From: Deltaproteobacteria bacterium
Lineage (GTDB): Bacteria > Desulfobacterota > Binatia > UBA9968
Reading direction: 5' to 3'
Assembly: GCA_016193465.1 (NCBI GenBank)
Contig: JACPSE010000058.1
Span: 97-64,096 of the forward strand
Length of the DNA stretch: 64,000 nt
Both the position numbers and the translations under genes were made by a program. Below are positions 3,991 through 16,864 of the stretch, piece after piece (positions within the stretch are counted from its first letter, which is position 1; every line of letters begins with the position of its first letter). The notes under the pieces are model-generated. The model was given only the letters and a program-made list of their open reading frames with translations, was not told the origin of the DNA and made no database searches.

Positions 3991-6909
3991 TTATTGGATG
4001 GAGTACGGCAGCTCGAAGGTAAAAGTCGAGCCCTTCCCCGGTTGGCTCTCGACCTTGATGTGACCCTCCATCATCTCCAGGTATCTTTTCACAATGTTCA
4101 GCCCCAGGCCGACCCCGCCGTAGCTGCCGGTGTGCGCTTCTTCTAGCTGATGAAACTGCTCAAAAATCTTGTCCCGGTCCTTGAAAGCGATGCCAATCCC
4201 GGTATCCGCCACGCTGAACTCGATCCGATTTTTGCCTTTAAGGTCTCGAACCCGCACCTCGATGCTACCCTGGGGCGTAAACTTAAAGGCGTTGCCGATC
4301 AAGTTCTGCAAAATCTCCTCGATCTTCAAGGCGTCCGTTGTCATCGGAGGGAGATCGGGTTCCACCTCCCACAGCACCTTCAGGCGGCCATTTCGATTGA
4401 GCTGCTCCACGTAACCTCTGGTGTGCGCGATGATCTCATCTACGTGAAACGTGGAGACGTTCAAGGAGGCCTTTCCCGCTTCCACCTTGGTGACCGTCAA
4501 TACGTCATTGATGAGTTTGAGCAGGGTCTCAGAATAATACAGGATCTTCTCCAGAGCGCTCCTTTGCTTGGCGCCGATATCGCCAAACATGCCATCTCTC
4601 ATCAGATCGGCGTTGCCAATAATGACATTAAGAGGAGTGCGCAATTCATGCGACATGGCTGCCAGAAAATCCGCCTTCGCCTGATTGGCCGTTATAAGCT
4701 CAATGTTGGTTTTTTCTAGCTCTAAAGATTTCTGTTTTGTCTGATAGAAGAGGTTGGCATTTTCCACGCCCACGCCGATCTCGTTGGCAATGGACCCTAT
4801 CAACTCTAGCTCCTCCGGAGAAAAACGGCGTCGGAAATAGTTGGCCAGGTTTAAGACTCCGACGATCCTTGCCCTAGATTTGACGGGAAAATTGTACAAC
4901 GTTCGGAAGCCGAAGGACTGCGCCCTTCGTCCCGCAGTTACCTGAAGATAGGCGGGGTCTGTCTGGATATCTTCATAAACCAACGGTTCCCCACTCTCTA
5001 TCACCCTTCCCATACTCCCCGTGCCTATCCCCCGCCGGTATATGGCGCGGACAAACTCATCGCTCAAACCCTTGTGGGCCCTGAGATGCAGCTCCTGACC
5101 TGAGGGATCCGCCACGTATATCCAGGCGGCGTCAAACGCCAAGATCTCGCACACCTTGTCCACGCTCTCTCTTAGGATAACGTCGAGCTCCAGAGATTGG
5201 TTCACGGTGGCCGCGATGGTATGGAGAGCGGAAAGTTGCTGACTTTTTTTCACCGCCTCCTCATAGAGACGGCTATTTTCGATAGCTACGCCAATCTCAT
5301 TGGCTACAGAACTGATCAACTGGACCTCGCTCGGGAGAAAAGAACGGGGAACAAGGTTCATGAGGTCCATCGTTCCCAGCACCTTTCCCTTCACCTTGAT
5401 CGGCAAAGAAGCCAGAGCGCGATAGCCAGCCTGCTTCGCCAGTCCGCTATAAGCAATCTGCTCATAGCGCGGATCGGTCTCTATATCCTCGAACAAAAGG
5501 GCTTCCCCGCTCTCCGCAACCTTGCCATTAATCCCCTCGCCTATTCTGTAGACGGAAAGCTGCATTCCGGCCTCTCCCGCAAACCCTTGGGAGGCCTTCA
5601 ACAGTAGTTCTTTTCTCTCTGGATCCAACAGATGGACGCGGCCTGCGTCAAAGCGAAGGACCTCCAGAACCTTTCTCAGCGCCGCGCTAAGGACACTGTT
5701 GATATCAAGGGACTCGCTAACACTAACCGTCACGTCATAAAGGGCTGAAAGCTCGCTGGTGCGTTGCTCTACCTTCTGCTCCAAAGTCACATGGGAAGCC
5801 TGAAGCTCCCCTGCCATCTTGTTAAACTCCCGGGCTAACTGCTCAATCTCATCCCCCGTCTTGATTTCCACACGATGATGGAGGTTGCCGTGACCAATGA
5901 CCTCGGCGCCGCGATGCAGCTCCGAAATCGGCCTGGTGATTCTGTTGCTGACCCATACAATGATGAGCGCCCCAATCAACACTCCGATACCTAATAGCAG
6001 AAGGGCGTAGCGCTCCATCCTTTTGAGTTCGCTCAAGGCTGCTGCAACAGGCTCTTCTAAAACGACCGCCCAGCCTAGCCCACCCACTGGAGCGAAAGTG
6101 GCAAGCACAGGCTCCCCAGTAATCCCCTGGCTTTCATAAGCAGGGGTAGGGTCTGGAGATGTGGGATTGCTGAGAAATTCCTGAACCGCATGGAGGTGAC
6201 TCAGATTCGTTCTTTTTAGGACCAGTGAGGGATCTCTATGGGCGATGAGATTTCCCCGACCATCCACAAGATAGGCATAGCCGGCGCGACCGAACCCAAT
6301 CTCTCCGATCACCTCCCAGAGGATTTTCAGATTGGCCTCCACAGAAACCACGCCGACCACCTCCTGAGGAGTAACCCTCAGCGGGACCGAGATGGTCACA
6401 TAAGGCTCCGCTTTATCGGACGTGTAGACCGGACTGATATAGTGCTCCCCCTTTATCGCACTCTTGAATTTAGCGGAATCGCTTTGATCGGCAAGCTCTC
6501 CGGGAAGATAGACTCTACGCTCCGAAACCTTTAGTACTTCCAACCCCTTTCCGTCCAAAACCGACACGTCGGTAAACGCCCTATCGTTCTTTAGCAGGAG
6601 AAGGGCAAGCAGCCTCTGCTCTTTCCCTCCCAGCTCATAAAGGGTCGCAGAGGCGGAGAAATCGAGCAGACGCTCCGCCTTCCGCCGGATGAAGTCCTCG
6701 ATCTCGCGAGCAACCCTGGAGGCAACCTCTGTCTGAAGCTCAGCGGCTTCTCTCTTGATTAGCCTTCGGGTGTACATGGAGCCGGCGAGGGTATTCACAA
6801 TCAGAGCTATTCCCAGAAGGGTAAGGCCCCATATCAGCAGCCGGCGGCGGATACCACCGCTTCGGCGAGAGAACAACTGTGTTATTTTGCCCAACTCCAA
6901 TTTCTTCAT
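3991..6909 (-). CDS. membrane sensor histidine kinase (Cache-HAMP-GAF-GAF-HisKA-HATPase)
   Basis: Two TM segments, HAMP (GDEIEQLAREFNKM), two GAF repeats, H-box MSHELRTPLN, N box (NAFKFT), G boxes (DTGIG, GVGLGL). Confidence 0.95.
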   Translation of the reverse strand: MKKLELGKITQLFSRRSGGIRRRLLIWGLTLLGIALIVNTLAGSMYTRRLIKREAAELQTEVASRVAREIEDFIRRKAERLLDFSASATLYELGGKEQRLLALLLLKNDRAFTDVSVLDGKGLEVLKVSERRVYLPGELADQSDSAKFKSAIKGEHYISPVYTSDKAEPYVTISVPLRVTPQEVVGVVSVEANLKILWEVIGEIGFGRAGYAYLVDGRGNLIAHRDPSLVLKRTNLSHLHAVQEFLSNPTSPDPTPAYESQGITGEPVLATFAPVGGLGWAVVLEEPVAAALSELKRMERYALLLLGIGVLIGALIIVWVSNRITRPISELHRGAEVIGHGNLHHRVEIKTGDEIEQLAREFNKMAGELQASHVTLEQKVEQRTSELSALYDVTVSVSESLDINSVLSAALRKVLEVLRFDAGRVHLLDPERKELLLKASQGFAGEAGMQLSVYRIGEGINGKVAESGEALLFEDIETDPRYEQIAYSGLAKQAGYRALASLPIKVKGKVLGTMDLMNLVPRSFLPSEVQLISSVANEIGVAIENSRLYEEAVKKSQQLSALHTIAATVNQSLELDVILRESVDKVCEILAFDAAWIYVADPSGQELHLRAHKGLSDEFVRAIYRRGIGTGSMGRVIESGEPLVYEDIQTDPAYLQVTAGRRAQSFGFRTLYNFPVKSRARIVGVLNLANYFRRRFSPEELELIGSIANEIGVGVENANLFYQTKQKSLELEKTNIELITANQAKADFLAAMSHELRTPLNVIIGNADLMRDGMFGDIGAKQRSALEKILYYSETLLKLINDVLTVTKVEAGKASLNVSTFHVDEIIAHTRGYVEQLNRNGRLKVLWEVEPDLPPMTTDALKIEEILQNLIGNAFKFTPQGSIEVRVRDLKGKNRIEFSVADTGIGIAFKDRDKIFEQFHQLEEAHTGSYGGVGLGLNIVKRYLEMMEGHIKVESQPGKGSTFTFELPYSIQ

Positions 6910-7880
6910 TACTGCCCGATCACTTCATCCGCCCGCAAGAGAATCTCCCTGGGAATCTTGAGGCCGATGGCCTTCGCCGTCTTGAGATTGATCGCCAGGG
7001 TCAGCTTGAAGGGCTGCTCGATGGGAAGATCCGCCGGCTTAGCCCCCTTGAGAATTTTGTGCACCAGCGCCGCCCCCTGTTGCCCAAGGGCGAAGTAATC
7101 CGGCGCGTAGGTAGCCAGTGCTCCTCTCCTCACATTAATGACGAGAGTAGTAATCACCGGGAGCTTCTCTTTAATAAAGTGCTGAACGACGACGTCAAGA
7201 TTCTTGGTAATGGTTAGATCCGGTGGGAGCAAGATGGCATCTGCCTGCTTTCGAGTCATCGTGCTAATGACCTGCCCCAAGTCGTCTCGGCTCGAAGCGT
7301 TCACTTCTTTAATGGCGAAGCCCATCTTTTTCCCCGCTTCCCGAACCGCAGCCAGATTCTCTCTGTAATTGACCCCCTGAGGGTTGTTTAAAGATACCAA
7401 TCGCTTGACCTTCGGTGCTAGCTCCTTAAGCAATTCCATCCGCTTTGCGGTAAGGTCCAAAGAGGCAGAGCTGATGCCGGTCATGTTATTGCCGGAGCTG
7501 GCGTAGCTTTGAACAAACTCCAGAGGATTCCCGGCGCTGAGAAACACTACCGGAAGATCTGTTCCCTTTGTCAACTTAGCTACTGGCACCGTAGCAGCGG
7601 TAGAGGATGTAACGATTAAATCGGGCTTGGCCTGGACCAATTTCCGAGCCAGCTTTTGAATATTATCTTGACCCCCCTTGGCATTATGAAAAGCATAAAG
7701 GATATTTTTCCTCTCTGTATGGCCCAGCTCTGCCATTTTTTTCTTGAATCCATCGAAGGCAGGGATGAACTGATCCTCGGCCACCAAGGCGCCGATGTGG
7801 TAAATTTTTTGGGCGCCGGCCTCTGGCACACCCATCGAACAAACGAGCAACGTGAAAACAAAAACCAGTGCACGCTTCAT
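6909..7880 (-). CDS. periplasmic solute-binding protein (ABC_sub_bind family)
   Basis: Signal peptide; NMTGIS, KRMELLKELAP and KILKGAKPADLPIEQP..LAINLKTAKAIGL motifs. Its stop overlaps the kinase start (TAATG). Confidence 0.92.
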   Translation of the reverse strand: MKRALVFVFTLLVCSMGVPEAGAQKIYHIGALVAEDQFIPAFDGFKKKMAELGHTERKNILYAFHNAKGGQDNIQKLARKLVQAKPDLIVTSSTAATVPVAKLTKGTDLPVVFLSAGNPLEFVQSYASSGNNMTGISSASLDLTAKRMELLKELAPKVKRLVSLNNPQGVNYRENLAAVREAGKKMGFAIKEVNASSRDDLGQVISTMTRKQADAILLPPDLTITKNLDVVVQHFIKEKLPVITTLVINVRRGALATYAPDYFALGQQGAALVHKILKGAKPADLPIEQPFKLTLAINLKTAKAIGLKIPREILLRADEVIGQ

Positions 7881-7918: not shown

Positions 7919-8908
7919 CTAGCCAGATTCGGCGAAGAGCGCCTTGCCAGCCTGGCGGAGCATTTCGATCCCCCGAACCTCCTGGTCAAAGAGCGGGACT
8001 ATGGCCCGCACCGACCGGTCAAATTTTTCCCAGATGGTTTTCATGTGCTCGTCCTGCATCTGAATCCTGTTGCGCACAAAATCTGGGACCTTTTCCCCAA
8101 GGGCCTGCCGATCTAGCAGCATGTTGACCACCACCCCCCCCACCGGGATGCCGAATTCATGGAACCAGCCGATGAACCGGGTAATGACCGCGATCGGGAG
8201 GGCCTCGGGCAGGGTAACGAAAAAGAAGGCAGTTTTCTCAGCATTCGTGAGGCGCTCGCGGGCCTGTCCCATCCGCTGACGAAACTGCAGCAGATAGGCG
8301 AGAAGGGGGTCCTCCTCTTTTTTCTTTGTGAAGGAGAGCATCTCCCGGAGCGTTCGCGCCTCCTCCCGCGACTTGAGCATCTTGTCCACCCACAGAGAAT
8401 AGACCTTGGACATCCCCAGAAGCCGGCGGGCATTGGCTGTCGGCGCAGTGTCGAAGACATAGACGTCGTACTCGTCCTTGAGCATGAGGTCCACCATGTT
8501 TTCAAACATCGCGGACTCTTCGAAGGCGGGGTTCATTGTGGCGGACTCCACAAAGTCCTCAGCTTTTGTGCTGATGTCGGCGAACTTGAGAAACCATTGG
8601 ATTTTTTCCCGAATCTCTTTCTTCGACCGTTCTATGGTCTCCCTGGTGTCGATCTCATACGCCGAAAGCAGATCCACTCCCTTGACTGGTGTGGGCGCGC
8701 CAAAAACCGATTGCTCCAGGAGTCCGGAAAGACTGTGGACGGGATTGGTGGATGCCAGGAGTGTCCGCTTTCCCTGCCCTGCGAACCAGATGGCCGTGGC
8801 GCCTGCCAAGGCGGTCTTGCCGACACCCCCCTTACCGCCAAAAAAAACATACTTTAGAGCGAGGTGCTCGCGGAAAAATTGCGCCATGGATGTCGTGATT
8901 TCCCTCAT
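7919..8908 (-). CDS. ArsA/Get3/TRC40-family ATPase, copy B (degenerate switch I/II)
   Basis: Deviant Walker A GGKGGVGKT; STNPVHSL; DTAPTAN; no cysteines. Confidence 0.93.
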   Translation of the reverse strand: MREITTSMAQFFREHLALKYVFFGGKGGVGKTALAGATAIWFAGQGKRTLLASTNPVHSLSGLLEQSVFGAPTPVKGVDLLSAYEIDTRETIERSKKEIREKIQWFLKFADISTKAEDFVESATMNPAFEESAMFENMVDLMLKDEYDVYVFDTAPTANARRLLGMSKVYSLWVDKMLKSREEARTLREMLSFTKKKEEDPLLAYLLQFRQRMGQARERLTNAEKTAFFFVTLPEALPIAVITRFIGWFHEFGIPVGGVVVNMLLDRQALGEKVPDFVRNRIQMQDEHMKTIWEKFDRSVRAIVPLFDQEVRGIEMLRQAGKALFAESG

Positions 8909-8920
8909 CTCTCCCGCTCA

Positions 8921-8990
8921 GTTCAAATGGTTCAAAAAGTTCAAATCGTTTAAACCGTTCGAACGGCTTGAACGTCTTAAACTACTTGAA
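8921..8990. repeat. palindrome of 9-mer tandem repeats (GTTCAAANN / NNTTGAAC)
   Basis: gttcaaatg gttcaaaaa gttcaaatc gtttaaacc gttcgaacg gcttgaacg tcttaaact acttgaa. Confidence 0.8.
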
Positions 8991-9953
8991 GAGCCTTTCT
9001 GCCAGTTTCTCGATCATCGGCAGTCCCGTGATATCCCGTTCCATCTCCGGAACATAGGCGAGGACCTGATCGCCCAAGGTGCCCTGGATTTTCTCCAAAT
9101 ATTTCTGCTGCATGACGATCCGATTTCTCAGGTACTGGGGCACATTGTCCTGGCGAAGCTCCAGAGGCAGCACCCGGTTCACCACATACCCTGAGATCGG
9201 GACATTGAAGCGGGAAAACAGCTCTGCCGCCTTCCTGGTATCCAAGATAATCATCTCCTCGGGCACGAGCACGAAGAAAAAGGCCGTGCGGCCCCGGTCG
9301 GTAAGTATCTGCGAGGAGGCATTGATGCGGCTTTTGATATACCGAAGCTCTTCGAGAATCTTGTCCTCTTCGACCGTCTCCTGGCGTCGCATGGTGGCCG
9401 CCATCTGATCATACTGGCGCATCTCCTCGCGGAGCTTGGTGATCTTGTTGATCCACTCGTCGTACACCTTCGCCATGGAAAGGTAATATAAGGCATGGCC
9501 AAGCGGAACCAGATCATAAATATAGTAGTCGTACTCCCCCTGGACAATGATATCCACCACAGCATCGAAGATCGCGCTCTCCTCCATGGCAGGCTCCGCC
9601 GAGGCGGCAGCTATGTAGCTGTCGATCTCCTCCGGGACGCGATCGAAGCCGTACATATCCAAAATCTTTTTGCGGATCTCATCTTGATACTCGCGGATGC
9701 GGCGATCCGCATCCACCTCTTGCGCCCAGAGGTTCTGCATGATGGGCACCGGCCCTTTGCCGAAAATGTCCCTCTGAAAAATATCCGAGAGGCTCGCTTG
9801 CGGGTCCACGGAAAAGAGCAGCACCCGCTTTCCTTGGCTCGCCAGCCAGAAGGCGCTGGTAGCGGAGAGCGTCGTCTTTCCCAGGCCTCCCTTGCCGCCG
9901 AACATAATATAGCGGCGCCCCGGCTGGCTTTCAAACACCTGTTTCAGTGACAT
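8982..9953 (-). CDS. ArsA/Get3/TRC40-family ATPase, copy A
   Basis: GGKGGLGKTT, SVDPQASLSD, DLVPLGH, VVNRV; no cysteines. Confidence 0.93.
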   Translation of the reverse strand: MSLKQVFESQPGRRYIMFGGKGGLGKTTLSATSAFWLASQGKRVLLFSVDPQASLSDIFQRDIFGKGPVPIMQNLWAQEVDADRRIREYQDEIRKKILDMYGFDRVPEEIDSYIAAASAEPAMEESAIFDAVVDIIVQGEYDYYIYDLVPLGHALYYLSMAKVYDEWINKITKLREEMRQYDQMAATMRRQETVEEDKILEELRYIKSRINASSQILTDRGRTAFFFVLVPEEMIILDTRKAAELFSRFNVPISGYVVNRVLPLELRQDNVPQYLRNRIVMQQKYLEKIQGTLGDQVLAYVPEMERDITGLPMIEKLAERLFK

Positions 9954-9975
9954 AGACTCAGGAACGGATAAAATG

Positions 9976-10037
9976 GTTCGAGTCGTTTAAGCCGTTCAAA
10001 TCGTTAAACGTTTTGAACAACTTGAACGTATTGAACG
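9976..10037. repeat. palindrome of 9-mer tandem repeats, same family as 8921-8990
   Basis: gttcgagtc gtttaagcc gttcaaatc gttaaacg ttttgaaca acttgaacg tattgaacg. Confidence 0.75.
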
Positions 10038-10042
10038 ACTAT

Positions 10043-10318
10043 TTATCCCAGAACGTCGGTAACGTCCCGCTCCCGGAGCATCCTTCGCTTCCATGAGCTG
10101 ATCTGCGGCGTCACATAGGGCAGCAGCCGCAGCGAGTAGTAGGGAGGGAGGATCGGAATGCCGAGCAAATCTCCCATGGTGATGAGGATAAAGAGGTGCT
10201 CCATGCTGGCTCGCGTGCGCACCGCGTGCCGGGTCATCTCATGCGAGGACATGCCGTAAACAATGTCCTTGAGCACCTGAATGACGCCGCTTTTTTTCCG
10301 CTTCTTTTCTTCAGCCAT
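10043..10318 (-). CDS. small CstA/ArsA-associated protein, paralog 2 (core resembles cory-CC-star proteins)
   Basis: EHLFILITMGDLLGIPILPPYYSLRLLPY..WKRR; AAGGAG RBS; clear paralog of 10338..10604. Confidence 0.8.
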   Translation of the reverse strand: MAEEKKRKKSGVIQVLKDIVYGMSSHEMTRHAVRTRASMEHLFILITMGDLLGIPILPPYYSLRLLPYVTPQISSWKRRMLRERDVTDVLG

Positions 10319-10337
10319 TTAACTCTCCTTACATACT

Positions 10338-10604
10338 TCACACACCCTGGAAATCGTACTCTTTTTTCTCCCAAAACTCCTTGCGCCGGGCCATCTCCCG
10401 CTTCCACTGAGCGACTTCCAGGACCAAGTAGGGAAGGAGACGCAAGGCGTATACAGGCGGCAACACCGGCACGCCGACCATGTCACCCACAGTCAGCACC
10501 ATAAAGATGCCCTCCAGCTCGCGCCGCATATCGAGAGCGTGACGCGTAAATTCATAGCCCGTGAGTCCATACCAAAACTGTTGAATTGGTTTCAATCCCA
10601 ACAT
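10338..10604 (-). CDS. small CstA/ArsA-associated protein, paralog 1
   Basis: EGIFMVLTVGDMVGVPVLPPVYALRLLPY..WKRE; immediately downstream of cstA. Confidence 0.8.
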   Translation of the reverse strand: MLGLKPIQQFWYGLTGYEFTRHALDMRRELEGIFMVLTVGDMVGVPVLPPVYALRLLPYLVLEVAQWKREMARRKEFWEKKEYDFQGV

Positions 10605-10631
10605 CTCTTTACCGGAAACCCCAATACCCCC

Positions 10632-12425
10632 CTACCCCCTGGCAGGCGCCGGGCCAGGGGCCGGAGCTGGACGACCCAGGTATTTCAGAAAGGCGCGCCA
10701 GCCGTCGAGACCGATGAGCAGAGCCGCCATGACCAGGAGCACCGACACCAAAACCATGAGTCCCGACCCCGCTGCCGGAAGCAACCTTCCCGCCGCGACG
10801 TTCGGCCGGTAAACATTAAAGTAGAGATTGTAAGCGGTGACCACGACCGAGCCCACGGTGGTAACGTACATAAATATCATCGGTAGGCCGGCATAGAGCC
10901 AAGCCTTGCCCACCGAGGCAAGCCAGATCGTCACCAGCAGCAGCGACAGTGCCGCCATGAGCTGGTTGGCGGCGCCGAAGAGTTGCCAGAGGTAGATCCA
11001 GGTCCCTGTCAACACCAGCAGGATAGCCAAGGCAACTGAGATAAAGGAAGCCACGTGCTGATTGCGAAACACTGGAACGACCTCTCCCAACCACTCCGTC
11101 AGGGTAACCCGCATCACCCGAAAGATGAGCTGAGTCACCACGAGAACAATAACGATGAAAGCGGCAAAGGCGAGCGAAGAGGCGTAGTCGAGCGGTATAC
11201 CCCACACGCTGATAAAACCCCCGAGACCATTAGCGAAAGCGGCCACCGGCGATCCCTTGGCGCCAACAGAAACAGCCAGCAGAGCGAGAAGCCCAAGCAG
11301 AAACTCGGCGAACATCGACCCTGCACCCACCGGGAGCATATCAGCCTCATTTTCGATCTGCCTTGCCGTTCCCACCGTGCCGAACAGCGCGTGCCACCCC
11401 GAGATCGCGCCGCAGGCAATAGTAACGAAGAGCATGGGCCATAGCGGCATGACCCCTGCCGGACCGAGTTGCGGGTTCCACCCCTTAAATGCTGGAATCC
11501 GGAATTGAGCCACCTCCGGTTTAACGAACGTGCCGAGCGCGGCGCCGGCCAATCCCAGGATCATTGCCAACGCCGTAACCCAAAAACCCACGTAAACAAC
11601 AGGCTGGGCCATGCGCCAGATCGGAAGCACAGACCCCGCGTAGCAGAAAACGCAGATAGCCAATGCCCAGAAGAGAAGGCTCGGCATGATCTTCGCTTCC
11701 GCGCCTTTAAAACTAGCCAGCGTAGGGTCGAAGTAGGTCACGATGGGGGCGCCACCGGTGATCCCGTTGAGCATCTCGTTGAGCCCCTTAAATGTGCCCT
11801 CGGTCAAGGGACCAATGAGGATCGCCAAAAGAGTGATCCCCACGGTAAGGATAGTTGCGGCCAATAACCCTGACCGCCAGCGGTAGAGCATCTGTCCCAG
11901 CAAAAGGCCCATAGCGACCAGCAGGATCATCCCCAGGTGCGTTCGGGGCTGGGACTCCAGCACGGAGGCCATGATGCCCACGAAGGCGCCGGCAATCAGC
12001 AACAAATAGAAGAAGATAAAGAGAAAAAGCACCGTCCGCGTCCGCGGTGAGATCAGCCGGTGGGCCACGGCTGATAGACTATTTCCTTCGTTGCGCACGG
12101 AGAGCACAATGGCGCTGTAGTCGCTGGCCCACCCCATGAAGGAGACTCCCACCACAAGCCAAATAAGGGCCGGGAGCCAACCCCACAGAGTAGCCGCCAC
12201 GATGGCGCCTACGATCGGCCCTGCTGCGGCAATGGACTTGAAGTGGTAGCCAAAGAGGATGTTCCTGTTCGTGGGCATGAAGTCTACGCCATCCATGTAG
12301 AGGGTCGCGGGGGTGGCTCTCCTCGGATCGGATTGGATAACGCTGCGATCAATGCGCCGGGCATAACGCGTATACGCCAGGTACACTGTTACGATACCCA
12401 GGATCACCGCGAACAGGCTATTCAT
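10632..12425 (-). CDS. cstA: carbon starvation protein A family transporter (CstA/BtsT)
   Basis: DGVDFMPT..LFGYHFKSIAAAGPIVG, PMLFVTIACGAISGWHAL, LWQLFGAANQLMAA; many TM helices. Confidence 0.95.
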   Translation of the reverse strand: MNSLFAVILGIVTVYLAYTRYARRIDRSVIQSDPRRATPATLYMDGVDFMPTNRNILFGYHFKSIAAAGPIVGAIVAATLWGWLPALIWLVVGVSFMGWASDYSAIVLSVRNEGNSLSAVAHRLISPRTRTVLFLFIFFYLLLIAGAFVGIMASVLESQPRTHLGMILLVAMGLLLGQMLYRWRSGLLAATILTVGITLLAILIGPLTEGTFKGLNEMLNGITGGAPIVTYFDPTLASFKGAEAKIMPSLLFWALAICVFCYAGSVLPIWRMAQPVVYVGFWVTALAMILGLAGAALGTFVKPEVAQFRIPAFKGWNPQLGPAGVMPLWPMLFVTIACGAISGWHALFGTVGTARQIENEADMLPVGAGSMFAEFLLGLLALLAVSVGAKGSPVAAFANGLGGFISVWGIPLDYASSLAFAAFIVIVLVVTQLIFRVMRVTLTEWLGEVVPVFRNQHVASFISVALAILLVLTGTWIYLWQLFGAANQLMAALSLLLVTIWLASVGKAWLYAGLPMIFMYVTTVGSVVVTAYNLYFNVYRPNVAAGRLLPAAGSGLMVLVSVLLVMAALLIGLDGWRAFLKYLGRPAPAPGPAPARG

Positions 12426-12470: not shown

Positions 12471-13097
12471 CTAGCGAGACGCATTTTTCTCACCGACGCG
12501 CCAGAGGTAAAGGGTATGGTCCCAGCCAGAACGGTCTTTGATTGTTTCGCTTCTTAACGGCTTCCAATCGCCCATATCAAAGTCGTGAGAGACTACTCGA
12601 GATCCCGGCTGCATTTGCTTCCAAATGTTCGGCCTCAACATCAAGTTGACTTCAGGGAGGAGGTACATGGTCAACACGGACGCAGGCGATAGATCAACTG
12701 TCCTTATGTCCTGCTCGCGGATCTCTACCAGATTCCCCACTCCTTCTTTGCGAATGTTCTCCCGCGACTCCCTGATACGATCGGGGTCAATCTCAAAACC
12801 GATGGCCTTAACACCGTATTTTTTGGCTGCCGTTATAACAATTCTCCCGTCACCAGAACCCAGATCGTAAACCACATCGCCCTTCTTGACCTGGGCCCAC
12901 TCCAACATACGCTCCACAACCTCCTGTGGCGTCGGCACATAGGGGACGATTTTCTTGGACTCAAGGTCGCTCTGCTGGGCATGAGCGGCTCCTACCCCAC
13001 TGCCTATTCCCGGCCGCGCGAACTCAGAGGGAAACCAACCCGGAGTCATCAAAGAGATAACCAGGCCGATCCACAGAAACCATTGTTGCTTTCTCAT
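12471..13097 (-). CDS. class I SAM-dependent methyltransferase with an N-terminal signal-like peptide
   Basis: VPYVPTP, VYDLGSGDGRI, VLTMYL, RVVSHDF; hydrophobic N-terminus ending AAHA-Q. Confidence 0.9.
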   Translation of the reverse strand: MRKQQWFLWIGLVISLMTPGWFPSEFARPGIGSGVGAAHAQQSDLESKKIVPYVPTPQEVVERMLEWAQVKKGDVVYDLGSGDGRIVITAAKKYGVKAIGFEIDPDRIRESRENIRKEGVGNLVEIREQDIRTVDLSPASVLTMYLLPEVNLMLRPNIWKQMQPGSRVVSHDFDMGDWKPLRSETIKDRSGWDHTLYLWRVGEKNASR

Positions 13098-13186: not shown

Positions 13187-15559
13187 TCAACCCAAGGCTT
13201 GCCCGGCGCTGACCCCGCTCTGCAATTGTCGGCGAATCACGAAGGTGAACCTGCTCCCCTCGCCTTCATTGCTGTCAACCCATATTCTCCCGCCATGGAG
13301 CTCCACGATTTCCTTGGCAATCGTGAGACCCAGACCCGTGCTGCTGACTCCCTGCGGGGACGCTAAACTGACCTGCTCGAATTTTTCGAAAATTCTTTTC
13401 TGGTCTGCCTTGGGAATTCCAATCCCCGAATCCTGCACGCTGACGGCCACGTTAGACCCATCCACCACCCCGGACGCTAAATCGTCCGGGTTGATCTCCA
13501 CGCAGATCTTTCCCCCTTCGGGAGTAAATTTGATGGCGTTGCCAAGGAGATTCGTCACCACCTGAGTCAAACGGTCCGCATCCGCCACTATAGGAACGGC
13601 CTTTTCGGGGTATACCTCCTCAATAGCCACCTGCTTGCTCTCTGCCCAGCTTCGGACCGTTTCCACGACATGATGCACCATGTCCCTAAGCTCAAAAGAG
13701 ATGGGGTGCAGCTCTATCCTTCCGGCCTCCAGCTTGGCAACATCCAGGAGATCATTCACAAGACGCGCCAGCCGGGTGATATTGCGGTGCGCAATAGAGA
13801 GAAACTTCTCCTGCTCAGGACTGACCTCTCCGACCTCTTTCCCCATAAGAAGGGACAAGGATTCCTCAATCGCCAACAGCGGAGTTCGGAGCTCATGCGA
13901 AACATGGGCGACGAACTTTGACTTCGCTTCATCCAACTGTTTTTGCTTCGTGATATCGCTGAGGACCGACACCATACCCACGGTCTTACCTTCCTGATTC
14001 TCAATCACAGCGGTGCTTGCCTGAACGATCCTCTGGGCGTCCTCGCTCGAGCTTTTCACTTCGATCTCTTTGGTAACGTGACCCTCTTCGTCTCGAAGAG
14101 GACCTTTGGCCAGAGCCAACGTGTGTTCCCCCTTCACCAGCTCGGGGATAGGAACGCCCTTGGCGCCCTTTTGATCTAGTCCCAGGAGTTTCTCCGCCGC
14201 CGGGTTCATGAACTGAATTTTGCCTTCCCCGTCCACGACCACCAGTCCTTCCCCGATGCTCCTGATTATAGTATCTACTCTTTCCTTCTCGTCCAGAAGC
14301 CGCTTTTTCTCGCGCTCCAGTGCGGCGGTTTGATGCTTGACCCGCAAGGCGAGTTCCTCCGCAAAGTGATCCCGGATGCGCCGTAGCTCTTCGAGCTCCT
14401 CCGGCGCAACCTCGACTTGGCCAGACTTCTTTGGCGCGCGCTTCTCCTCTACGGCCGCAAAAGCCCGATCCAAGTCCTTTTCGCCAACCCCCAATGCGCT
14501 CAGCCTTTCCCGCAGGGGCTCGATGAGCCGCTCGCGGATTTCTTTGCCGCGCAAAAATTTTGCCCCAATCTTGGCCAGCGAGGTCACAGCGCCGCCGCTT
14601 TCCTGGAATGCCTTGGTTATCAGTTCCAACTTGACCTCATCGGCGCACCGCTCCAATCTCGCGACCAGCTCTTCCACCGCCACTTTAAAGTCCCCGGGAA
14701 CATCGGGACCCTCTACCGTCTTCTTGAACTCCTTGGCAAAGCGAGAGATGCGCGGCGAAAAATCTTTCCCCTCCTGGATCGAAGGCCGGGCCAAATGTTC
14801 CTGCAGGAAACGTCCCAGATCTTCCACAATCCGCTTCAGCGTCTCCAGGTCCTCTGCCCGCCGCAGGACCTCTCTAGCAACCAGCTCGGGCTTCTTCTCC
14901 ACTTCATAGGCAAGCCGCTCGAGATCGAGAGTAAGCTCGATTTTTTCGCCGGCGCCCTTTAGAAGATGCTCGACCAGTTCCTCCATCCGCTCTATCTTGC
15001 GTCCTCGCCCCGCGGGTGCCGCCTTCTCTTTTTTCGCTGCTTCGCTTCTTTCACCTGCATCTCCACCCTCGCCTCCGCCTTGACCAACCCCTGACTTCTT
15101 GACCACTGCCTCCTCTTCTTTAATGATCTGAATACGAGCGGCCCCGAGGCGGATGTGCTTCAATTTCGCTTCTTCAAAAACCTTCTTGAACCCCCCCATT
15201 TCTTCCAGAGTCTTTATCGGCGTAGCGATCACTTTGAAGAGCGAGTTAAACTCGTCTTCGGTGGCCCCTTGATCAAAGGTCAGACTCTCGATATGGAGCC
15301 GGTTGGTTTCACGCAAAAGCTCGGCAACCCCGGTCTTTTTATTGTCGAGAGCATGGTCGTTGACAACTAGCCGTCCTCCCACAAACGCCAAGACGAGGGC
15401 CGGTTCCGAGCCCACAACCACCTCAAGCCTGGCCAAAAAGTTTCGCACCGCAAGCTGCGCCGCCGGGTGCTTCTCAGAATATAGCCGGTACTGGCTCAGG
15501 ACAAAGCTAAAAACCTTGATGACCTCCGCGTATTGTGTTTCTTTCCCCTGAGTTTGCAT
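13187..15559 (-). CDS. cytoplasmic PAS sensor histidine kinase with a long unannotated helical N-terminus
   Basis: PAS (EGLVVVD..MNPAAEKLLG), H-box VSHELRTPL, NAIKFTP, DSGIG, STGLGL. Confidence 0.93.
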   Translation of the reverse strand: MQTQGKETQYAEVIKVFSFVLSQYRLYSEKHPAAQLAVRNFLARLEVVVGSEPALVLAFVGGRLVVNDHALDNKKTGVAELLRETNRLHIESLTFDQGATEDEFNSLFKVIATPIKTLEEMGGFKKVFEEAKLKHIRLGAARIQIIKEEEAVVKKSGVGQGGGEGGDAGERSEAAKKEKAAPAGRGRKIERMEELVEHLLKGAGEKIELTLDLERLAYEVEKKPELVAREVLRRAEDLETLKRIVEDLGRFLQEHLARPSIQEGKDFSPRISRFAKEFKKTVEGPDVPGDFKVAVEELVARLERCADEVKLELITKAFQESGGAVTSLAKIGAKFLRGKEIRERLIEPLRERLSALGVGEKDLDRAFAAVEEKRAPKKSGQVEVAPEELEELRRIRDHFAEELALRVKHQTAALEREKKRLLDEKERVDTIIRSIGEGLVVVDGEGKIQFMNPAAEKLLGLDQKGAKGVPIPELVKGEHTLALAKGPLRDEEGHVTKEIEVKSSSEDAQRIVQASTAVIENQEGKTVGMVSVLSDITKQKQLDEAKSKFVAHVSHELRTPLLAIEESLSLLMGKEVGEVSPEQEKFLSIAHRNITRLARLVNDLLDVAKLEAGRIELHPISFELRDMVHHVVETVRSWAESKQVAIEEVYPEKAVPIVADADRLTQVVTNLLGNAIKFTPEGGKICVEINPDDLASGVVDGSNVAVSVQDSGIGIPKADQKRIFEKFEQVSLASPQGVSSTGLGLTIAKEIVELHGGRIWVDSNEGEGSRFTFVIRRQLQSGVSAGQALG

Positions 15560-16864
15560 CTACTCTCGCCTCTTACACTCCACCGGAAACCAGAATTTAA
15601 AAATGGAACCTTTCCCCTCAACGCTGTCCACCTCAATCCCCCCACCGAGAAGCTCTAAGATCTTTTTCACATTCCTTAGACCTAAACCCATGCCTCCGTA
15701 GAGTCTCGTGTGCGAGCTGTCGATCTGGTGGAAAGGGTCAAAAATGACGTTGTAACGGTCGGCGGAGATGCCAATCCCCGTATCTTCTATCTCGCACTGT
15801 GCTATCCGTCGCTCTGGAGAATAGCGGACCCTAACATTCACGCTTCCCTTCTCGGTAAACTTAATGGCATTATCAATCAGGTTCCGAAAAACTTTGGTGA
15901 GCTTTCCCTGGTCGCTGAAAAGCGGCGGCAGCTTCGAGTCAATCTCCCAATGGAGCTCAAGCTTCTTGTGCGTGGCCTCATCGCCTACCGTGTCCGTGAT
16001 CACATCCCGGATGTGATCCACCGTGAAAGGATCGGGATGAACCGCGACTCCTCCTGCCTCCAGTTGTGATACCTCAATCGCATTCTCCACCTGGAATAGC
16101 AGTCCGGCGCCGCTTCTTCGGACCGTCTGGAGGCTGTCCCTTTGTTTTTCGTTCATCTCGCCGAATATCCCGTCCATCAGAATTTCAACGTTACCGAGGA
16201 TAACGGTAACTGGCGTGCGCAGCTCGTGGGAGATAACGCTGAGGAGGCGCTCTTTAATGCCGCCCGATTCCTCAAGACGCAGGGTTAATTTGGTAAGGTC
16301 ATCGACGTTGTTTTTGAGGGCTGTAAAGAGCCGGGCATTTTCAATGGTGATGCCGATAACTCTCCCCATAGCCGCAAGGAGTTGAATTTCCTGCTCTCCA
16401 AAGCCGCCTCTTTCAGGGCTGGCGACGGCAAGGGTTCCGACCACCCCCTCGCGCGCCAGAAGCGGGACGCCCAGTAGGGAATTGATCCCCTCCTTTCTCA
16501 AGGAGAGATAAGCGCACGAGGAATCTGTCTGAATATTGTCCCATAAAACCGGACCTCTGGTGCGGACAATCTTTCCGGAACTCCTCTCTCCGATCTTGAT
16601 GCTGCGGTATTTCTCCGCGTACTCATCGGGGAAACCTCTGTGGCTCAAGAGTTCAAGCTGCCCCGTCGCAGGGTCAAGAACCCTGATATTGCCATATCTG
16701 AGGTTCAAGACTTCCAGCACCTTATCCAGGGCACTGTCATAAATGCGGGCGGAGTTCTGGGCTATGGTCAGAAGGTCGGCCAAGGCAGACAAGGCCGAGT
16801 AACCGGTCAACCCAATTCCGTTAGGGACTCCAGATAACTTGGCTACCGCCATTGCGGACCTCAA
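15560..16864 (-). CDS. GAF sensor histidine kinase
   Basis: GAF (SLLGVPLLAREGVVGTL..IENARLF), ISHELRTP, NAIKFT, GMGLGL. Confidence 0.93.
   Translation of the reverse strand: MRSAMAVAKLSGVPNGIGLTGYSALSALADLLTIAQNSARIYDSALDKVLEVLNLRYGNIRVLDPATGQLELLSHRGFPDEYAEKYRSIKIGERSSGKIVRTRGPVLWDNIQTDSSCAYLSLRKEGINSLLGVPLLAREGVVGTLAVASPERGGFGEQEIQLLAAMGRVIGITIENARLFTALKNNVDDLTKLTLRLEESGGIKERLLSVISHELRTPVTVILGNVEILMDGIFGEMNEKQRDSLQTVRRSGAGLLFQVENAIEVSQLEAGGVAVHPDPFTVDHIRDVITDTVGDEATHKKLELHWEIDSKLPPLFSDQGKLTKVFRNLIDNAIKFTEKGSVNVRVRYSPERRIAQCEIEDTGIGISADRYNVIFDPFHQIDSSHTRLYGGMGLGLRNVKKILELLGGGIEVDSVEGKGSIFKFWFPVECKRRE

Follow-up and report, generated by a model that had tools for sequence, protein, structure and literature searches.

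What do two ATPases of the Get3/ArsA fold do next to the gene of a CstA-family carrier, and do they act on the carrier at all? This question is raised by five minus-strand open reading frames (ORF listing) that fill positions 7919–12425 of the window, the whole 64,000-nt stretch analyzed from contig JACPSE010000058.1 of a Deltaproteobacteria bacterium. In the order of reading they are cstA, X1, X2, ATPase A, and ATPase B. The locus is very probably a 1+2+2 member of the class of cstA-cstX-arsA-homologue operons of Castillo and Saier (2010, Int J Microbiol, PMC2963123). The gene partnership and the coupling idea were described there in 2010 and are not new. What we add is the placement of X1 and X2 in DUF7990, the 2+2 layout seen throughout the assessable loci of the subfamily, the motif asymmetry of the two ATPases, and Get3 as their closest solved relatives.

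Organization of the locus

The cstA gene (10632–12425) codes for a 597-aa permease (PF02554, E 2.7e-104) and is the sole PF02554 locus in its genome. It is followed by the genes of two DUF7990 (CstX-like) small proteins, X1 (10338–10604, 88 aa) and X2 (10043–10318, 91 aa), and of two single-domain Get3/ArsA-fold ATPases, A (8982–9953, 323 aa) and B (7919–8908, 329 aa). A and B are the only two full-length ArsA-fold genes of this genome; both are situated in the operon, as is the only CstA gene. The spacers, in the order cstA-X1-X2-A-B, are 27, 19, 89, and 73 nt long. Therefore, from the preliminary description of five tightly spaced co-oriented genes, the co-orientation holds throughout (all are on the minus strand), and only the first three genes are tightly spaced.

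We counted no cysteines in A, B, X1, or X2 and three in CstA, which confirmed the reported lack of cysteine in both ATPases. The reported absence of arsB, acr3, arsD, and arsR nearby was borne out as well: none of the 13 neighboring ORFs scanned in the first 24 kb of the window (1–24 kb; 8 of the ORFs were picked among those of at least 120 aa) matched the ArsB, Acr3, ArsD, or ArsR families. The scanned neighbors were a CoA-transferase, a hemerythrin, three sensor kinases, a substrate-binding protein, a methyltransferase, two aconitase-family subunits, a peptidase, TruA, an amidohydrolase, and one ORF with no match.

Conservation of gene order

The synteny survey covered the 80 best related loci from other genomes, distributed over about ten phyla. 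Two X genes were present in all 80 loci, adjacent to each other in 79 (3.1 kb apart in L059); 72 loci also had a CstA ortholog upstream of the two X genes. ATPase A followed by B was found in 67 loci; the other 13 were not assessable for both ATPases (11 stopped at a contig edge, L020 had a scaffold gap, and L043 ended 0.55 kb past A). Since the gene order recurs in related loci from other genomes, the five-gene arrangement is far beyond chance. The five genes are thus a conserved unit, as had been proposed, and within the subfamily 2+2 is the standard layout.

The X-X-A-B unit was separable from cstA in 2–3 loci. In L070 and L028, the 5.9–6.9 kb upstream did not contain CstA, which was encoded elsewhere in both genomes; in the genome of L026, CstA was looked for and not found. 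We also observed that in 62 of the 80 loci the X genes were paired divergently with another membrane protein, Y, and that 6 of these 62 showed no CstA.

The actinobacterial loci with a single X of the cory-CC-star type (NCBIfam NF041419) have the X in the same slot (cstA, (Mid), X, ATPase). All 16 such loci had exactly one adjacent ATPase, with canonical motifs where read, compared to two X with A and B in the window. CstA was upstream in 15 of the 16, and the remaining locus was cut by a contig end. L119 and L120, which have two X genes, carry A and B. The numbers of X and ATPase genes therefore match, 2+2 in the two-X loci and 1+1 in the single-X loci. The gene partnership is widespread among bacteria of soil and groundwater.

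Small proteins X1 and X2

X1 and X2 are paralogs (41% identity, E 5e-27). Judged by sequence, they belong to DUF7990 (PF25952): homologs of X1 carry a precomputed PF25952 assignment, and the cluster of X2 is named DUF7990/PF25952 in Atlas. By the same kind of evidence they are distant relatives of the cory-CC-star family, as the NF041419 scores were weak, 32.5 bits for X1 (E 6e-8) and 35 bits for X2 (E 1e-8) versus a cut-off of 80, and the C-terminal Cys-Cys of that family is missing. A search with hmmscan at E ≤ 0.01 gave no Pfam match for either protein, DUF466 (YbdD/YjiX) included.

Across 51 orthologs, X2 has 42 invariant columns and X1 has 10, so X2 is the more conserved paralog. The conserved motif of X1, G-D...G.P..P, is situated in the borderline hydrophobic core; G40, G44, P46, and P49 are invariant, and D41 and P50 are nearly so. 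The hydrophobic segment of X holds three Pro and one Asp (invariant in X2, nearly invariant in X1). The Kyte-Doolittle maxima over 19 residues were 1.79 for X1 and 1.61 for X2, so that the segment behind the label of hydrophobic adaptors in the preliminary description is of borderline hydrophobicity. An AF2 model of X2 alone predicted, with low confidence (pLDDT 56), two helices at 12–52 and 59–90.

Natural fusions were seen among related ORFs. X1 is fused to X2 in P0063 and P0066, as read from the sequences, and in P0064, P0065, and P0067, as judged from length and score only; X2 is fused to A in P0069 (in frame) and P0086 (read-through). All of them are singletons and, therefore, weak evidence.

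ATPases A and B

The two ATPases are paralogs (36% identity, E 1e-63), and both scored above the cut-offs of PF02374 and TIGR00345 (A: E 8.7e-70 and 232 bits, respectively; B: E 3e-65 for PF02374). Their closest solved relatives were archaeal Get3 proteins (3UG6 and 3ZQ6, E 1e-54 to 1e-60; 3UG6 was the best for A, E 1.3e-60) and not ArsA or BagAB. Archaeal Get3 matched better than E. coli ArsA by ~30 orders of magnitude in E-value. With the ArsA model TIGR04291 the scores were 100–119 bits at a cut-off of 650 which, along with the lack of Cys and of ars neighbors, upholds the view that these are not true ArsA proteins. The BagA and BagB models gave 50 and 33 bits (cut-offs 400 and 521), and 6BS3 gave E 1e-7.

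ATPase A has the P-loop GGKGGLGKTT, the switch I SVDPQAS, and the switch II DLVPLGH, with the catalytic Asp kept. The respective motifs of ATPase B are GGKGGVGKTA, STNPVHS, and DTAPTANARR, with Asn replacing the catalytic Asp of switch I; in the alignment to archaeal Get3, N55 is aligned with the STDPAH Asp, and TAN with TGH. The D57N mutant of Get3 shows no hydrolysis. We found the patterns of A (SVDPQAS, DLVPLGH) and of B (STNPVHS, DTAPTAN) each in 51 of 51 sequences, and large parts of the helical subdomain were invariant across phyla. The single ATPases of the single-X loci had the canonical STDPAHS in 15 of 15 cases and DTAPTGH in 13 of 15 (the regex gave no match in the other two). In a midpoint-rooted FastTree tree, A (support 0.72) and B (0.999) were sister clades, with the single ATPases falling outside.

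These patterns suggest that A and B may form an obligate asymmetric heterodimer. The heterodimer had been proposed earlier, and the complementary, invariant motif changes make it plausible; the physical pairing itself is what we infer from them.

Comparison with known systems

PMC2963123 describes 26 cstA-arsA operons drawn from SEED, many of them archaeal. Like the window, these operons encode a CstA permease, immediately followed by a ~90-aa protein that has a single hydrophobic segment, and ~330-aa single-domain ArsA homologues; no arsenic (ars) genes are reported there in any cstA operon. Cluster 15, from Pyrobaculum arsenaticum, has the same 1+2+2 layout, with a pair of CstX paralogs and a pair of adjacent ArsA homologues; Symbiobacterium thermophilum has such an adjacent ArsA pair too. 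The trees of CstA, CstX, and ArsA were congruent, and it was hypothesized that ArsA energizes CstA with CstX as the link. Two earlier statements are thus outdated, namely, that the known layout is one small protein with one ArsA and that no mechanism is known for it. Compared to that set, the window represents a bacterial subfamily of soil and groundwater phyla where 2+2 is universal among the assessable loci. Its fixed complementary changes in the A and B motifs are not mentioned in the available part of that paper. We equated X1 and X2 with CstX by position, size, and the shared NF041419/DUF7990 relationship rather than by direct sequence comparison.

ArsA-ArsB serves as the model of how a carrier is coupled to ATP; it shares with the window a SIMIBI-class deviant-Walker-A ATPase, two non-equivalent nucleotide sites, and genetic coupling to a secondary carrier. 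ArsA, however, is one two-domain polypeptide with metalloid-binding Cys, while the window encodes two separate Cys-free polypeptides, the carrier CstA, and two small proteins that the ars system lacks. Archaeal Get3 (M. jannaschii 3UG6/3UG7 and M. thermautotrophicus 3ZQ6) resembles A and B in the full-length match, the single-domain size, and the absence of CxxC. Still, these proteins are homo-oligomers that carry canonical STDPAH and DTAPTGH along with a Met-rich insert, whereas A and B are paralogs, one of them with a degenerate site, and share their operon with a transporter gene. Where A and B align to the Get3 lid (TRC40 insert), they have 3–4 residues fewer than M. jannaschii Get3 and a more polar sequence.

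The btsT locus of E. coli has the layout BtsT(YjiY)-YjiX-YjiA, with a SIMIBI-class P-loop NTPase following the small protein. YjiA is a COG0523 GTPase and not a Get3-fold ATPase; YjiX and YbdD are DUF466 proteins, a family that X1 and X2 did not match at E ≤ 0.01. Since X1 and X2 gave no Pfam match at this threshold, we regard the parallel drawn earlier as an analogy only, rather than as demonstrated homology. Another E. coli likeness is CstA-YbdD, where, according to Hwang 2018 (PMC5847655), pyruvate uptake by CstA requires YbdD, the small protein encoded just downstream.

Mycobacterial BagAB (Rv3679/Rv3680; PDB 6BS3) is likewise encoded by a pair of neighboring Get3-like ATPase genes; their products interact, as stated in the title of a paper listed in the references of PMC10597346. 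The similarity of A and B to BagAB was only marginal. We found no link between the cory-CC-star proteins and BagAB-type genes; the CC-star neighbor in the actinobacterial loci is a PF02374 ATPase beside cstA.

Possible role of the ATPases

The reading that we favor, tentatively, is that X1 and X2 couple CstA to an ATP-dependent switch or energizer. It builds on the observed gene content, conserved synteny, motif asymmetry, and matched numbers of X and ATPase genes. Further points in its favor are that this operon holds the sole CstA gene and the sole two full-length ArsA-fold genes of the genome, the natural fusions, weak as they are, the need of E. coli CstA for YbdD, and the congruent trees of PMC2963123. 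CstA would be a secondary carrier, with pyruvate or small peptides as its presumed substrates. X1 and X2 would be two-helix proteins paired at or in the membrane, a location that we presume, and each would contact one protomer of the putative asymmetric Get3-fold heterodimer. Subunit A would have the complete catalytic site, and subunit B, which lacks that Asp, would still bind ATP. The dimer would open and close as ATP is bound and, at the one active site, hydrolyzed, and this movement, through the presumed contacts of X1 and X2, would gate or energize CstA; uptake would then track the energy state of the cell, which is the supposed direction of the effect on transport. Such a model has its parallel in ArsB, a secondary carrier that ArsA converts into an ATP-coupled pump. 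E. coli CstA and BtsT are reported to function without any ATPase, which counts against coupling. So do the occurrence of the X-X-A-B unit apart from cstA and the nature of the X segment, which is of marginal hydrophobicity for a membrane span and contains a conserved Asp and three Pro.

In the main rival reading, which we consider somewhat unlikely, A and B are a dedicated Get3-like targeting factor or holdase that captures the X1/X2 hairpins after the ribosome and delivers them to the membrane, or holds them there, as subunits of CstA; the ATPase would then serve biogenesis or assembly and not transport. A chaperone role is favored by the closest solved relatives being tail-anchor-binding archaeal Get3 proteins. 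Proteins of 88–91 aa are too short for co-translational targeting, and X1 and X2 have just one moderately hydrophobic segment each. That X2 alone folds without confidence is as expected of a partner- or membrane-dependent protein; the ratio of one X to each ATPase protomer would suit half-grooves that each hold one client helix pair, and a unit standing away from cstA agrees with this reading as well. On the other hand, the lid-aligned region is shorter and more polar, the segment of X is central rather than C-terminal and contains the conserved Asp, and the invariance of large parts of the helical subdomain is easier to reconcile with a specific interface than with a promiscuous groove. It would also be uneconomical to keep an ATPase of two genes just for inserting two small proteins.

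It is more doubtful that X-X-A-B is a separate stress or metabolic module (for example, a general chaperone or a BagAB-like detoxification-related pair), co-regulated with cstA under carbon starvation and having no direct action on CstA. Arguments against it are that cstA directly precedes the unit in 72 of the 80 loci, a set spanning about ten phyla, and does the same in 15 of 16 single-X loci; the marginal BagA/BagB similarity; and the congruent trees reported in PMC2963123. Its supporting facts are the 2–3 loci with the unit not beside cstA, the divergent pairing of X with Y, and mycobacterial BagAB as paired Get3-like ATPases with a stress phenotype (as given in passages of PMC10597346 that cite the work and in the titles of PDB entry 6BS3). 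Finally, it is highly improbable that A and B are a true arsenical/antimonite resistance pair serving an unlinked ArsB or Acr3. The Pfam name ArsA_ATPase and the partial matches to ArsA models would agree with such a role, yet A and B are Cys-free single domains of ~325 aa, compared to ~580 aa for the two-domain ArsA, with TIGR04291 scores far below the cut-off and no ars match among the scanned neighbors, in keeping with the cstA operons of PMC2963123.

Repeats in the spacers

The two longer spacers, X2-A (9954–10042, minus strand, 89 nt) and A-B (8909–8981, minus strand, 73 nt), each contain one copy of a genome-wide dispersed palindromic repeat made of 9-nt-periodic GTTCAA/TTGAAC units, as detected by motif matches. 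Their RNA folds had predicted energies of −25.5 kcal/mol (z −3.8) and −19.4 kcal/mol (z −2.35), respectively. In most close relatives the X2-to-A gap is only 3–17 nt (3–6 nt in 6 of the 12 complete loci L010–L023), with three exceptions at 32, 103, and 201 nt. The X2-to-A spacer of L023 is likewise enlarged, to 167 nt.

The cstA operon in the window

The ORF listing of the window shows five minus-strand ORFs spanning positions 7919-12425, in the order cstA (10632-12425), X1 (10338-10604), X2 (10043-10318), ATPase A (8982-9953) and ATPase B (7919-8908). The first gene codes for a protein of 597 aa that matches the CstA family (PF02554) at E 2.7e-104. X1 and X2 are paralogous small proteins of 88 and 91 aa with 41% identity, while A and B are paralogous Get3/ArsA-fold ATPases of 323 and 329 aa with 36% identity, both matching PF02374 and TIGR00345 above the cut-offs. 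Spacers between the genes, from cstA to B, are 27, 19, 89 and 73 nt. Neither the two ATPases nor the two small proteins have a cysteine. The 4.5-Mb genome, which marker genes show to be 100% complete, contains no second CstA gene and no further full-length ArsA-fold gene.

The preliminary description had listed these five genes, with both ATPases free of cysteine and no arsenic genes nearby. The ORFs, family matches and cysteine counts confirmed this observation, as did the neighbour scan, where none of the 13 neighbouring ORFs (window 1-24 kb) matched the arsB, acr3, arsD or arsR families, and the finding that the CstA gene and the two full-length ArsA-fold genes are the only ones of their kind in the genome.

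Relation to published operons

Operons of this kind have been described before. In the relevant passages of Castillo and Saier (2010; PMC2963123), cstA is found together with an ArsA homologue in 26 operons, and 24 of these also encode CstX, a protein of ~90 aa with a single TMS; the ArsA homologues are single-domain proteins of ~330 aa, and the same passages place no arsenic genes in the operons. Pyrobaculum arsenaticum is reported there to have two CstX paralogs and two adjacent ArsA homologues, i.e., the 1+2+2 layout, and Symbiobacterium thermophilum to have two adjacent ArsA homologues; CstX is proposed to couple CstA transport to ATP hydrolysis by ArsA. Our full-text search of the CstA-ATPase literature found no later experimental study of this module among the papers listed, and the functions of newly noticed bacterial Get3 homologues are called unclear and the proteins uncharacterised in a review (PMC6593721).

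The operon in the window shares with the published class a CstA-family permease (PF02554) as the first gene, proteins of 88 and 91 aa with a single hydrophobic segment directly downstream of cstA (matched to CstX by position and size), and single-domain ArsA homologues of 323 and 329 aa, with no ars match among the 13 neighbouring ORFs scanned. Since the association has been in print since 2010, the locus is a well-characterised example rather than a discovery.

The small proteins X1 and X2

Neither X1 nor X2 had a match in Pfam at E ≤ 0.01, and thus none to DUF466 (YbdD/YjiX). The probable assignment to DUF7990 (PF25952), a model outside the Pfam copy scanned, came from precomputed annotations of homologs and from the Atlas. 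The PF25952 annotation was present in 62 of 62 X1 homologs and in 31 of the 33 longer X2 homologs; the Atlas placed X2 in DUF7990 clusters with scores of 0.95-0.97. The family is small: of 1.84 billion representatives searched with the X2 profile, only 428 clusters (at 50% identity) matched with E ≤ 0.001. With the cory-CC-star model (NF041419) X1 and X2 scored 32.5 and 35.0 bits, below the 80-bit cut-off. Both proteins are without the C-terminal Cys-Cys, while a true cory-CC-star member in the actinobacterial locus L121, a gene that L093 covers as well, has CC at its end.

The 19-residue Kyte-Doolittle maxima, 1.79 for X1 and 1.61 for X2, are at the threshold for a membrane span. The hydrophobic segment includes a Gly-Asp pair, invariant in X2 and nearly so in X1, and a P.LPP motif. 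We observed that X2 is much more constrained, with 42 invariant columns vs. 10 in X1. AF2 modelled X2 alone, with a low pLDDT of 56, as a pair of long helices interrupted by the LPP motif.

Some database proteins appear as fusions. X1 and X2 are joined in P0063 and P0066, as seen in their sequences, and, as inferred from length and score, in P0064, P0065 and P0067; X2 is joined to A in P0069 (clean and in frame) and in P0086 (read-through). All these fused ORFs are singletons and they make weak Rosetta-stone evidence. Three other candidates were rejected as true fusions: in P0093 and P0095 the X2 part is translated out of frame (frameshift artefacts), and P0084 looks chimeric. The artefacts join DUF7990 to an ArsA_ATPase or an ABC permease domain, in some cases with only a C-terminal fragment attached. 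The domain-architecture counts for PF25952 would therefore be inflated.

When the fusion P0069 was folded using aligned orthologs of X2 and A, the mean pLDDT per 10-residue block was high in the ATPase, mostly 72-96 (57 and 67 in two blocks), and low in the X2 part (33-72); no docking could be read. Co-folding of A, B, X1 and X2, done with 51-row alignments per chain (49 rows counted for X2), gave a score of 0.01 for X2 against a mark of 0.32; this value speaks neither for nor against binding.

Asymmetry of the two ATPases

The motifs of A (P-loop GGKGGLGKTT, switch I SVDPQAS, switch II DLVPLGH) and those of B (P-loop GGKGGVGKT[VA], switch I STNPVHS, switch II DTAPTANARR) were invariant in 51/51 sequences each. 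Both proteins share with Get3/TRC40, the ATPase that brings tail-anchored clients to a membrane receptor, the deviant Walker A of the GKGGVGKT type along with its signature Lys, which was found in 50/51 A and 51/51 B sequences. Switch I has Asp in all 51 A sequences and Asn in all 51 B sequences. In an alignment with archaeal Get3, the Asn of B falls under the Asp of STDPAH, and its TAN falls under TGH. We take this Asp to be the catalytic residue of Get3, and D57N to be the usual mutant that abolishes hydrolysis. In the 1+1+1 loci (one CstA, one small protein, one ATPase), the single ATPase had the canonical STDPAHS in 15 of 15 cases and DTAPTGH in 13 of 15, the regex finding nothing in the remaining two. 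A and B came out as sister clades (support 0.72 and 0.999, respectively) in a midpoint-rooted FastTree, with the single ATPases outside. From these sequences we infer a duplication followed by subfunctionalisation to a putative obligate A/B heterodimer, in which one ATP site would be catalytic and the other degenerate, much as the two halves of ArsA are non-equivalent.

Among solved structures the best relatives were the archaeal Get3 proteins 3UG6 (M. jannaschii) and 3ZQ6 (M. thermautotrophicus), at E 1e-54 to 1e-60, followed by E. coli ArsA (1e-30 to 1e-33) and eukaryotic Get3 (1e-17 to 1e-27); the chains of the BagAB structure 6BS3 matched at E 1e-7 and 6e-6. The best scores with the BagA and BagB models (NF053622, NF053621) were 50.5 bits (cut-off 400) and 33.2 bits (cut-off 521), respectively. 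Eukaryotic Get3 has a Zn-binding CxxC in its dimer interface, unlike A and B with no cysteine; still, the missing CxxC is not decisive against Get3, because CxxC is also absent from some archaeal Get3 proteins. In Get3 the TRC40 insert goes with a hydrophobic, Met-rich client groove; compared with M. jannaschii Get3, the segment of A and B aligned to this lid is more polar and shorter by 3-4 residues. Much of the helical subdomain of A and B is invariant across phyla, which in our reading fits a dedicated interface with a particular protein better than an unselective hydrophobic groove.

The ATPases are not true ArsA. With the ArsA model TIGR04291 they scored 99.7 and 119.4 bits vs. the cut-off of 650. 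The ArsA pump ATPase has two fused domains (~580 aa), metalloid-binding cysteines and a link to arsB, acr3, arsD or arsR, unlike A and B, which are single-domain proteins free of cysteine. Given also the lack of ars matches among the 13 ORFs, a role of A and B in arsenic resistance is essentially excluded.

Conservation of the gene layout

A scan with one genome per species revealed at least 587 stretches encoding X relatives. The best 80 of them came from Methylomirabilota/Rokubacteria, Syntrophobacteraceae, Binatia, Chloroflexota, Actinomycetota, Acidobacteriota, Gemmatimonadota, Planctomycetota, Udaeobacter and an alphaproteobacterium. The layouts of these 80 loci were determined by tblastn (C, CstA; X, small protein; T, ATPase). 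The order C-X-X-T-T was found in 43 loci, C-X-X-T-T-X, with a third X after B, in 12, C-C-X-X-T-T (split CstA hits) in two, and C-X-X-T-T with extra T pieces (frameshifted assemblies) in three. The rest were X-X-T-T with no CstA hit (7 loci), C-X-X-T (7), C-X-X (5) and X-X (1). Two X genes were present in 80/80 loci and both ATPases in 67/80. The remaining 13 could not be judged for the pair: in 11 the contig runs out, L020 is interrupted by a scaffold gap, and the sequence of L043 stops 0.55 kb past A. The 2+2 arrangement, whose synteny the preliminary description had put forward for checking in homologs, is kept and is universal in this subfamily among the loci examined.

CstA was encoded upstream in 72 of the 80 best loci. 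In L070 and L028 the 5.9-6.9 kb upstream is without CstA, which is encoded elsewhere in both genomes; for L026, the search of the whole genome gave no CstA. The linkage of X-X-A-B to the organism's only CstA is tight, though not obligatory.

X2 was present in 12 of 24 genomes of the same family as the window's organism and in none of 16 from other families of the order, while the cross-phylum identity to the proteins of the window reached 69-89% for A and 63-93% for X2. Such a patchy distribution along with high identity points to horizontal spread of the unit.

The 12 loci with a third DUF7990 gene (e.g., L039:9642-9905 and L061:9566-9829) come from assemblies of the Chloroflexota type, labelled Anaerolineales, Anaerolineae or unclassified Chloroflexi. 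Their 1+3+2 layout breaks the rule of one X per ATPase.

Loci with a single small protein

Among the 251 Actinomycetota genomes sampled for cory-CC-star, 20 had a match (including G177, flagged as unpublished), with 15 of the 20 scoring above the NF041419 cut-off. In all 16 single-X loci the order was cstA, often a gene that we call Mid, X and exactly one ArsA-fold ATPase. CstA was visible in 15 of the 16, the other locus being cut by the contig end. The ~140-aa Mid gene lies between cstA and X in 12 of the 16 (e.g., L121:8316-8744, minus strand). Cory-CC-star is thus the CstX slot of the 1+1+1 operon. The same 16 loci led us to reject a placement of cory-CC-star proteins beside BagAB-type pairs without cstA.

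Possible roles of the module

The unit is conserved, has one X per ATPase over two architectures, and carries an asymmetric ATPase pair. The preliminary description had proposed a 1+2+2 machine, with an ATPase heterodimer and two adaptors acting on CstA. The conserved unit and the ATPase asymmetry support it in part; the idea equals the hypothesis set out in 2010 in PMC2963123. We tentatively favour such coupling, at somewhat less than an even chance: X1 and X2 would form a pair at the membrane, connecting CstA to a switch made of A and B, whose one active site would bind and hydrolyse ATP and in this way gate or energise uptake. The precedent on which this reading draws is E. coli CstA, whose pyruvate uptake requires the small YbdD encoded just downstream, as stated in the pertinent text of PMC5847655. 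The main rival, which we hold to be rather unlikely, is that A and B serve the very short X proteins alone, as their chaperone or insertase of the Get3 type; the similarity of A and B to archaeal Get3 and the loci where the unit lies away from cstA speak for it.

We give a smaller chance to a built-in GET-like machine, in which an obligate A/B heterodimer with one active site would clamp the two DUF7990 hairpin proteins and thereby drive or gate CstA; A would be the catalytic subunit, and B, a natural counterpart of D57N, would be held in the ATP-bound state. If true, bacterial Get3 homologues would gain their first defined partner or client and the CstA family its first ATP-coupled transporter, spread over hundreds of species from soil and groundwater. 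A weaker rival, that X-X-A-B is a co-regulated but separate stress module, seems quite improbable to us.

The association of cstA, cstX and arsA is known already, and so is the coupling hypothesis, both from the operon descriptions in PMC2963123. This analysis adds a probable identity for CstX (DUF7990/CC-star), the finding that 2+2 is universal in the subfamily among the loci examined, the match between the numbers of X and ATPase genes, the invariant asymmetry of A and B with one putative active site, and two accessory genes, Y and U. These additions sharpen the hypothesis and make it easier to test; they do not change the category of the locus. For what Get3/ArsA-fold ATPases do in bacteria apart from arsenic resistance, the module is a tractable test case, with an ATPase pair, two dedicated small partners and one transporter in a compact 4.5 kb; one naturally degenerate ATP site would be useful for trapping states. 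If the ATPases gate or power CstA, many soil phyla that are still uncultured would scavenge pyruvate or peptides under ATP control, and CstA, like ArsB, would be a carrier able to recruit an ATPase.

Accessory genes

The first accessory gene, Y, was found in 62 of the 80 best loci (e.g., L034:5772-6431 and L049:6279-6926, both on the minus strand). It codes for a ~215-aa protein with an N-terminal hydrophobic helix and always lies on the opposite strand, directly upstream of and divergent from X1; it sits between cstA and X1 in 56 loci, with no CstA seen in the other 6. Y had no match in Pfam or NCBIfam; its homologs form 478 clusters, and all the source-given names among the 120 listed were 'hypothetical protein'. 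In size and topology, by description only, Y is like the archaeal CstY in the account of Castillo and Saier (PMC2963123).

The second gene, U, codes for a protein of ~115-140 aa, co-oriented with and just upstream of cstA in 44 of the 80 loci (e.g., L049:3805-4194 and L013:239-583, both on the plus strand). The L049 copy, the one fully read, has a CxxC motif. U showed only weak similarity, to DUF1525 and TIGR03757, and a short local similarity to Mid at E 0.003. It may be a further accessory subunit. Single-protein queries found neither Y nor U in the window's genome; thus, the window and its 16 closest loci have the minimal five-gene form.

Flanking genes and a dispersed repeat

The genes around the operon code for three sensor kinases, a PF04392 binding protein, a methyltransferase, a CoA-transferase, a hemerythrin, aconitase-family subunits, a peptidase, TruA and an amidohydrolase. 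Downstream (window 3991-7880), a co-oriented gene for the PF04392 substrate-binding protein begins 38 nt after B, and its stop overlaps the start of a gene for a 972-aa Cache-HAMP-GAF-GAF histidine kinase. A terminator scan found none convincing after B, so B and the binding-protein gene may be co-transcribed; only 5 related loci have this gene downstream. A scan upstream of cstA found no sigma-70-like promoter site.

Upstream of cstA lies a gene for a secreted-looking SAM methyltransferase (window 12471-13097), and just upstream of it two more histidine kinase genes, one with PAS and one with GAF (window 13187-16864). The methyltransferase is in the same position in L021 (Candidatus Udaeobacter, a verrucomicrobial MAG) and L023; its cluster has 7 ORFs from 7 loci. 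This recurrence, along with the high identities and the patchy distribution, suggests that the whole block may have been transferred horizontally.

Both long spacers of the operon (9954-10042 and 8909-8981) contain a dispersed palindromic repeat with 9-nt-periodic AACGNTTTGAAC / GTTCAA units, and fold as hairpins with z of -3.8 and -2.4, respectively. The spacer between X2 and A is only 3-17 nt long in most close relatives. The repeat 12-mer is absent elsewhere in the window and from 104 loci of other genomes. With at most one mismatch, it has 118 copies in the genome, vs. 16 for the reversed control, often as clustered inverted copies. The repeat looks like a REP/MITE-like element that invaded intergenic sites.
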